Position numbers and translations under genes: made by a program | Sequence record: PQ819470.1 | Source of the DNA: Escherichia phage ev_rybdy3 | Length of the DNA: 64,000 nucleotides | Direction: 5' to 3' (one strand) | Part shown: piece after piece, positions 4,833 to 5,231 of the stretch | How the letters are laid out: each line of letters begins with the position of its first letter | Position numbering within the stretch: the stretch's first letter is position 1 | Notes under the pieces: generated by a model | Database searches by the model: none | What the model saw: only the letters and a program-made list of their open reading frames with translations | What the model was told of the DNA's origin: nothing

Positions 4833-4996
4833 TTTATTCCGAGATTCTAAATAAAGTCAGAGAGATGCGGCAAGGTGATGCAGTAGTTGATGTTCTGGTT
4901 CATCTGGTAGCATCCTTGCAAGAAGAAAACGATTTGGTTAAACAAGAAAACAAGGCATTAAGGAAGGCAATAAGTAACCTCTCCAATAGCCTCTCT

Positions 4997-5013
4997 TTTT
5001 AGTACTATGACGC
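4997..5013 (+). repeat. 17-mer TTTTAGTACTATGACGC, copy 1, flanked by C-rich tract
   Basis: identical 17-mer recurs at ~12574-12590; both next to CCCTCTYCCCCCC tracts. Confidence 0.45.
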
Positions 5014-5231
5014 TCTTTCTATAGCGTCGTGCCCTCTCCCCCCATTTGAAGCTTCCGCATAGCCGCCTTTGAGCGGCTTTTTGCGTTGCTGTAGGAGTTA
5101 TCCGTGGAGTCAGTTATTTCATATTTAGGGGAAGGTGGATTTTTCTTCCTATGTGGTATGCTTTTTGGTGTTATTATCACCTTATTGATGCTTATGATAG
5201 GGTTCATGGAAGCAGTATCACGTTAACAACC

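Follow-up and report, generated by a model that had tools for sequence, protein, structure and literature searches.

A conserved core at three positions in phiEco32-like phages matches the TACT/RTGMC nick consensus and may serve a clade-wide nicking system

The stretch analyzed here, called the window throughout, comprises 64,000 nucleotides of Escherichia phage ev_rybdy3 (PQ819470.1), and the element in question is a 17-mer, TTTTAGTACTATGACGC, which occurs in it at sites S1 and S2 and, in diverged form, at a third site, S3. In our reading, S1 to S3 are sites recognized by a site-specific nicking system common to the clade; we assign this reading a probability of about 0.55, and the nick in kuravirus DNA is itself predicted. 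That the core of the three sites belongs to the TACT/RTGMC family of nick-associated motifs is held with much higher confidence. What this analysis observed is the identity of the motif, how it is conserved and distributed across the family, and the common ancestry of the phages that carry it. The 17-mer is best explained as a local, extended form of a known nick-associated motif, found in a phage group in which that motif had not been described.

The window belongs to a phiEco32-like podovirus (Kuravirus), with 100% identity to Escherichia phage ev_rybdy8 and 93 to 95% identity to other Kuravirus phages, SU10, Paul, and SGF2 among them. Its plus strand is the sense strand for early and middle genes, and late genes lie on the minus strand. 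An earlier note, made from the sequence alone, had reported two identical copies of the 17-mer, and both are exact and on the plus strand (Table 1). Its count was incomplete: a diverged copy on the minus strand, TTCTAGTACTGTGACGG, had gone unnoticed and is the sole additional match at up to three mismatches, bringing the matches to 3 compared with 0.14 expected from shuffled sequence. The same note placed each copy in an intergenic gap after a small open reading frame (ORF), which holds for S2; S1 is not wholly intergenic because its TAG is the stop codon of the ORF that it overlaps. S1 and S2 lie on the early-gene sense strand and S3 on the late-gene sense strand, so that all three occupy the local non-template strand. 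Judged by what is conserved, the functional unit is shorter than 17 nt, namely, S-TACTRTGAC-G, a core of 10 to 11 nt.

This core coincides with nick sites mapped in other phages. Virion DNA of phage tf has 14 localized single-strand interruptions, all within 5'-TACT/RTGMC-3' (Glukhov et al. 2012, PMC3517423). They affect one strand only, are ligatable, occur in >90% of genomes, and were mapped by run-off sequencing, primer extension, and ligase-reversible strand breaks (PMC3517423); they are also annotated in the tf sequence record. The same study named TACTATGAC the main putative site in LUZ24, PaP3, and MR299-2. In phage Rembedalsseter, 13 nicks detected by nanopore sequencing lie at WACTRTGAC (Dougherty et al. 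2025, PMC11780129), and the motif is enriched in 60 related Pseudomonas phages, its function and enzyme being stated there as unknown (PMC11780129). The kuravirus core, TACTATGAC or TACTGTGAC, agrees exactly with TACT/RTGMC and likewise fits WACTRTGAC; the window holds the former core twice and the latter once, and the natural variants A and G at core position 5 are both the R of the consensus. In tf, motif variants mutated at position 1, 3, or 4 escape cutting. Two flank preferences outside the published consensus were derived here from tf and LUZ24: of 23 sites in these two genomes, 20 have G immediately 3' of the 9-mer and 20 have G or C immediately 5' of it. Both preferences, G at position +10 and S at position -1, hold at all Kuravirus and Suseptimavirus sites, including 3/3 sites in each of the window, phiEco32, and EK010.

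Relatives were retrieved by homology and numbered eight: Paul, phiEco32, LAMP, EcoN5, Bas93, and Bas89, together with EK010 and IME267 of the sister genus Suseptimavirus. The earlier note had made the case for a functional element depend on occurrence in related genomes, and the motif is present in every Kuravirus and Suseptimavirus relative examined, with S1 and S2 syntenic in 8/8. Across the three sites and both genera, S-TACTRTGAC-G is the only invariant part. The upstream context of S1 comes in four different versions around an unchanged core. In Suseptimavirus, TTTTAG is replaced by GTCAAC, TTTAAC, or TTTAGC; the GACGC/GCGTC hairpin is missing in Bas89; and position 5 of S1 is G, not A, in phiEco32 and Bas89. 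At S3, an alignment of five phages from both genera has an invariant block, (G/C)TACTGTGACGGAAGA, within a coding stretch of 73% mean identity and several indels; the 15-nt block is free of synonymous change, and neighboring conserved codons vary at their third positions. In phiEco32 the S3 counterpart is located at 27941, and EK010 has it in the syntenic place. Copies of TACTRTGMC in phiEco32 (whole genome) and EK010 (70 of 78 kb) are just S1 to S3, with no stray ones, and the 13.8 kb of ev_rybdy8 lying outside the window has none. A genus-specific concerted change at position -1, suggested by the five-phage alignment, was withdrawn: the position is simply S, because Bas89 mixes G and C among its three sites.

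The early leaders of LAMP (position 1225) and EcoN5 (position 924) have an additional TACTATGCC, preceded by A and followed by C, which misfits the extended consensus, is absent from the window, and may have arisen by chance or be of minor importance. When viral and metagenome collections were scanned for the exact pattern, the kuravirus loci came up along with unrelated matches, due to chance or in coding sequence, and no further informative families. An unrelated family of G+C-rich metagenome contigs (up to 364 kb) has CCCCCTCTG-TTTTAGTACTGTGACGC, a variant of the 17-mer preceded, as in the phage, by a C-rich run; the occurrence is probably due to chance, a similar number of random matches being expected for the pattern.

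The motif is abundant and strand biased in several branches of the podovirus clade and reduced to three conserved positions in Kuravirus and Suseptimavirus. Over whole genomes, its copies number 14/0 by strand in tf and 9/0 in LUZ24, with ~0.6 to 0.7 expected per strand (P = 1e-14 and 3e-8, respectively), and 12/1 in Salmonella phage 7-11 (Moazamivirus), with 1.4 expected on the major strand (P = 4e-8). Proteus phage Privateer (Grimontviridae) has 6/0 in 50 kb, with 0.58 expected on the major strand (P = 3e-5). No enrichment is seen in 50 kb each of Cronobacter phage GAP52 (1/0) and Aeromonas phage LAh_9 (0/0), with ~0.8 expected per strand, nor in 64 to 78 kb of Kuravirus and Suseptimavirus genomes (2/1), with ~1.0 to 1.3 expected per strand. 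Copies in 7-11 (NC_015938) crowd at the early genome end, for example at 88031, 87004, 86020, 85062, and 83740 on the minus strand; 12 of the 13 are on the minus strand and 12 of the 13 on the sense strand, and the extended consensus is AC-TACTGTGAC-G. All six Privateer copies (NC_048861, 40711-90710) are on the sense strand as well, five of them with AC...G flanks, and the sole GAP52 copy is a perfect extended site. Suseptimavirus sites have AAC, TAC, or AGC before TACT, matching the extended form of 7-11 and Privateer.

Kinship among these phages extends well past the motif. About 15 proteins are common to kuraviruses and tf/LUZ24-type phages, including a syntenic block that runs in the window phage, tf, and LUZ24 from two hypothetical genes through COOH-NH2 ligase, amidoligase, glutamine amidotransferase, ATP-grasp, and gamma-glutamyl cyclotransferase genes to those of the primase-helicase, a separate 3'-5' exonuclease subunit, DNA polymerase, and a 5'-3' exonuclease (FEN). 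The ligase, amidoligase, amidotransferase, ATP-grasp, primase-helicase, exonuclease, polymerase, and FEN genes of this block are also common to 7-11, again in syntenic order, as are terminase, portal, and capsid genes. Further features that unite the window phage, tf, and LUZ24 are terminase, portal, scaffold, and capsid genes and a layout with short terminal repeats and convergent transcription. Given this syntenic block and shared layout, the motif could be inherited and need not be convergent.

Which enzyme would act at the motif is a matter of hypothesis, and a basic protein of 105 amino acids (Table 1) is in our view the best candidate. A conserved candidate of this kind, with a putative HNH fold, occurs in all motif-bearing groups. 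Among the proteins common to kuravirus, 7-11, LUZ24, and tf, it has the highest percent identity, 55 to 62% across the four groups versus 26 to 56% for the other proteins common to all four. It combines a D/G-H...GG.N...NL...N pattern with a predicted beta-beta-alpha core, and its best structural matches include small HNH nicking endonucleases (Geobacter Gme HNH, 4h9d; phage GVE2 HNH, 5h0o; and I-HmuI). In a phage collection it was found in 246 records, nearly all from Escherichia kuravirus-like and Pseudomonas Bruynoghevirus-like groups, the remainder being Salmonella, Cronobacter, Proteus, Aeromonas, and Vibrio relatives. The terminase nuclease or other nucleases of these phages are possible alternatives. 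The homologue of this protein in LUZ24 (15622-15930, plus strand) and in tf (~16141-16386, plus strand) lies in a different frame from the annotated "transmembrane" gp26 and tf_29, respectively, which are probably miscalled because the annotated frames do not align with the 105-amino-acid family at all.

By analogy with tf, we infer the nick in kuravirus DNA, its enzyme, and its timing as follows. A phage-encoded nuclease would cut the motif-bearing strand between T4 and R5, at the positions predicted in Table 1, probably late in infection or during packaging. Virion DNA would then bear ligatable nicks with 3'-OH and 5'-P ends, as in tf, and these would be sealed after infection, as reported for phiKF77 (cited in PMC3517423). 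The non-template placement of all three sites would, we suggest, let RNA polymerase pass. A fuller version is offered more tentatively: phiEco32-like phages may have three fixed nicks, made by the phi32_58-family HNH-like protein as the nickase of the tf/LUZ24/7-11/phiEco32 clade, and the nicks may have a position-specific role. Within this fuller version the role would be position specific and not incidental because the copy number has been pared to three conserved non-template positions; it could lie in genome ejection or packaging or in the start of replication or recombination.

Several observations weigh against the nicking reading. The match to the consensus was recognized only after the fact, which is why an independent test was sought on the flanking bases. 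In the window the 9-mer is not enriched (3 seen versus ~2.1 expected in 64 kb), and its copies are split over both strands, two on the plus strand and one on the minus. A literature search found no published nick evidence for any kuravirus, Gordonclarkvirinae, phiEco32, or 7-11. Against the candidate enzyme, Pfam and PDB sequence searches with the 105-amino-acid protein gave nothing, and its PHROG family, 4590, carries no function. LAh_9 encodes the HNH-like gene, yet the motif is absent from the 50 kb examined, half its genome. S1 and S2 also have common features beyond the core, namely, TTTTAG, an upstream pyrimidine run, and a YCTYT stretch, followed by a hairpin and a terminator, and this context could have a separate transcript-level role.

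The main rival stays at the level of DNA: a conserved phage protein would read the sites without leaving a persistent nick in kuravirus virions, and the sites might be used for transient cleavage or binding in replication initiation, recombination, or a packaging or ejection checkpoint. It draws on the same conservation and family evidence as the nick model, and three fixed-position copies on both strands resemble landmarks more than they resemble the 9 to 14 scattered nicks of tf and LUZ24. We nevertheless hold it to be unlikely: in both experimentally tested phages the motif coincides with stable nicks in >90% of genomes (PMC3517423, PMC11780129), and nothing specific indicates an origin or a packaging site. 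Less probable again is a role in RNA, with UACURUGACG on early and late mRNA as the binding or cleavage site of an RNA-processing factor; at S1 and S2 it would act jointly with three features found at the 3' end of gene blocks, namely, the pyrimidine tract, the small hairpin, and the terminator. All three copies are indeed on the sense strand of their transcription unit, S1 and S2 stand past stop codons and ahead of terminators with a hairpin directly after the core in both, and the S1 region folds better than shuffles (z = -3.0). However, the S2 region folds no better than chance (z = -1.75 for the window, -0.6 for EK010), the hairpin stems are either invariant or broken and never compensated, with no stem left in Bas89 S1 or in certain metagenomic S2 variants, and neither S1 nor S2 matches an Rfam family. 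In late genes of tf, LUZ24, and 7-11, some copies are on the template strand, hence outside mRNA, and DNA nicks at the motif are experimentally established in relatives.

A single-element promoter, in which TACTAT would act as a -10-like hexamer for host RNA polymerase or a phage sigma factor and drive a short RNA ending at the nearby terminator or a downstream gene, seems very improbable. TACTAT does resemble a -10 element, the -10 region of the early promoter at 1019-1046 agrees with it at 11 of the 17 nucleotides of the 17-mer, and Suseptimavirus S2 is ~47 nt upstream of a start codon. Yet there is no -35 hexamer 16 to 18 bp upstream and no extended -10 TGn, TACTAT being preceded by TAG, AAC, or AGC and, upstream of these, by a pyrimidine run; the predicted start region is all pyrimidine, and a promoter scan did not call the site. 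The motif is not among the published phiEco32 and SU10 promoters of the sigma70 or gp36 type and matches the gp36 element tAATGTAtA at no more than 3 of 9 positions on either strand. S1 runs at once into terminators, S3 is inside a late gene, and most family members read TACTGT. As for a functionless relic of an intergenic duplication that resembles the nick consensus by chance, the 43-nt similarity of S1 and S2 and a 9-mer count equal to chance expectation would fit it, but the core is invariant while its flanks have been replaced, it recurs in coding sequence, and it shows the same +10 G and -1 S preferences as experimentally nicked sites; we give this explanation the least credence of all.

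These results also sort the functions proposed in the earlier note. It was right that the element is neither a sigma70 promoter, with no -35 element or TGn, nor a typical terminator, the 17-mer forming no hairpin. Its phage-specific promoter and processing site are left unsupported, because the third copy is intragenic, in late coding sequence without a nearby terminator or gene start, because only the 10- to 11-nt core is conserved, and because this core is the mapped nick consensus. Its endonuclease target and its replication or packaging signal came nearest, with a nicking site now favored over the homing-endonuclease site that it had in mind.

Some further candidates were tried and rejected. 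An intrinsic terminator does not fit a 17-mer that itself has no hairpin, and S3 and Bas89 S1 are without one; in Suseptimavirus S1, the GACGC of the core forms the 5' arm of a terminator-like hairpin. A nut/boxA-like site would rest on CGCTCTTT, which S1 contains and S2, S3, and other S1 versions do not. A small RNA that begins at the 17-mer and ends at the terminator would presuppose the promoter reading, and neither S3 nor Bas89 supports it. A dimeric protein operator on the palindrome TAGTACTA was dismissed since the replacement of TTTTAG in Suseptimavirus destroys the palindrome (AACTACTA). The starts of GenBank records were uninformative as evidence of breaks, a few of them lying 80 to 500 bp from S1 and none at the site.

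S1 and S2 are both in the early region, where each closes a run of small genes, and terminator-like hairpins follow 37 to 64 nt downstream (Table 1). The wider similarity of the two sites covers 43 nt at 74% identity, and we read this extra likeness of the flanks as the end-of-operon context of two paralogous intergenic segments, not as part of the motif. The C-rich runs that the earlier note had seen beside both copies are present, and S1 is also directly preceded by a pyrimidine run, CCTCTCT. Their inclusion in the element did not hold up, with the run downstream of S1 absent in Suseptimavirus, and the C-rich tract is a local feature, not part of the conserved element. The pyrimidine fraction upstream of S2 is 0.94 to 1.0 in both genera and is much weaker or absent at S3 and some S1 versions; no such tract was found beside motif copies in tf, LUZ24, or 7-11. 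The hairpin at 5007-5030 is likewise not a required part of the motif, because its stem is lost in Bas89 S1 (GACGT...).

Table 1. Coordinates of the three sites, the candidate enzyme, and neighboring features in the window
Feature	Position	Strand	Remarks
S1	4997-5013	+	Exact copy of the 17-mer; TAG at 5000-5002 is the stop codon of ORF 4829-5002
S1 core, G-TACTATGAC-G	5002-5012	+	Predicted nick T5006/A5007 (5006|5007), position taken from tf
S2	12574-12590	+	Exact copy of the 17-mer; starts 19 nt past the stop of a 38-amino-acid ORF (12438-12554) and is 72 nt upstream of the start of gene 12662-12895
S2 core, G-TACTATGAC-G	12579-12589	+	Predicted nick T12583/A12584 (12583|12584), position taken from tf
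S3	47759-47775	-	Diverged copy; within a late gene of 1,488 amino acids (45228-49694; phi32_26 homologue)
S3 core, TACTGTGAC	47761-47769	-	Predicted nick on the minus strand between 47766 and 47765 (47766|47765)
Candidate nicking enzyme, basic protein of 105 amino acids	33689-34003	+	phi32_58 homologue; 7-11 gp068; HNH-like motif VGHK..K.GGSN..SNLRV.....N
Intrinsic terminator, AGCCGC-CTTTGA-GCGGCT plus T-run	5061-5083	+	~50 nt past S1; kept in Suseptimavirus; context only
Terminator-like hairpin	12611-12636	+	Past S2; absent at Suseptimavirus S2; context only
Hairpin, ATGACGC/GCGTCGT, 10-nt loop	5007-5030	+	5' arm overlaps the S1 core; stem present in most S1 versions
C-rich run, CCCTCTCCCCCC	5032-5043	+	After S1; shorter in other kuraviruses, absent at Suseptimavirus S1
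Pyrimidine run, CCCTCTTCTCTCCCCCCC	12556-12573	+	Before S2

Among kuraviruses, the stretch that follows S1 is a hot spot at which gene content varies. Shortly downstream of the site, between the intrinsic terminators at 5061-5083 and 5232-5251, the plus strand has a small hydrophobic ORF at 5104-5226, 40 amino acids from a GTG with AGGAG upstream, that is unannotated in the matching GenBank record.

A separate set of repeats was observed in the 2-kb non-coding early leader of the window. CGCTCTTTAA[A/C/T]AA occurs there four times on the plus strand, at 1171-1183, 1281-1293, 1595-1607, and 1829-1841, with weaker CGCTCTTTAA-type copies near 2148 and 2286, and each of the four is downstream of a sigma70-type early promoter (TTGACA at 1019, 1219, 1553, and 1710). 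The boxA of Escherichia coli rrn operons is TGCTCTTTAACAA, and the leader repeats are nearly identical to it. Their number and position are kept in phiEco32, Bas89, and EK010, and they occur nowhere else in these genomes; Privateer has one rrn-like boxA, TGCTCTTTAATAA, near its early end. The likeness suggests rrn-type (Nus factor) antitermination of long early transcripts that cross several terminators, and a literature search found no publication mentioning boxA together with phiEco32. Of the early promoters, the third (TTGACA at 1553) has a -10 element that fits sigma70 poorly and contains, at 1583-1591 on the plus strand, GAATGTAGT with the gp36-element core AATGTA, directly ahead of a boxA-like copy. 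The phage sigma factor might use this promoter as well.

Site-specific nicks in packaged phage DNA were recognized about 50 years ago in T5, later in phiKMV-like phages, and later still in tf; they have no accepted function, and no enzyme has been established for the tf-type motif. If the nicking reading is true, the motif system reaches past Pseudomonas phages to coliphages (phiEco32, SU10, and the BASEL kuraviruses), 7-11, and Privateer, and the distribution of the motif in 7-11 predicts ~12 one-strand nicks in its virion DNA. Kuraviruses would be the minimal case, with three conserved sites, two of them intergenic and easily mutated, a tractable host, and a mapped transcription program. Function and mechanism are directly testable because the conserved sites are few, the host is tractable, and the 105-amino-acid protein is a specific candidate. 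For annotation, the result accounts for a conserved intergenic 17-mer that annotators might otherwise take to be a promoter.

Among known systems, the published promoters of the phiEco32 group are of sigma70 type in the early leader and of the gp36-dependent type, tAATGTAtA at 6 to 8 bp upstream of the start, for middle and late genes. They are likewise short conserved elements of the same genome, and TACTAT is -10-like, whereas the motif differs in sequence, has no -35 element, is not at known promoter positions, and has one copy inside a gene. T5, BF23, and phiKMV-like phages have site-specific nicks in packaged linear DNA with terminal repeats, and phages of the T5 and phiKMV type that lack individual nicks are viable (PMC3517423, PMC11780129); both their lineages and their consensus sequences are unrelated, the latter being R/GCGCRGG in T5 and CGACxxxxxCCTA/CTCCGG in phiKMV. 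Closer are 7-11 and Privateer, which have the same motif in its AC-TACTGTGAC-G form and agree with kuraviruses in genome layout and in encoding the HNH-like small protein. They differ from kuraviruses in copy number, 13 in 7-11 and at least 6 in Privateer, and in strong one-strand bias, and nicks are apparently unreported there too. The nearest systems are tf (a Krylovvirus), Rembedalsseter, and the LUZ24-like Bruynogheviruses, with which kuraviruses have in common the core including its R degeneracy, both flank preferences, synteny of the early and replication module, and the genes for terminase, portal, and capsid. In those phages, too, the first copies fall among small early genes, in part between genes. 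Compared with the 9 to 14 copies per 45 kb of these phages, kuraviruses have 3 per 77-kb genome without enrichment, on both strands (2 + 1) and in an E. coli host, with nicks that are predicted only, and two of their three sites have extra shared flanks in the form of TTTTAG and pyrimidine tracts.

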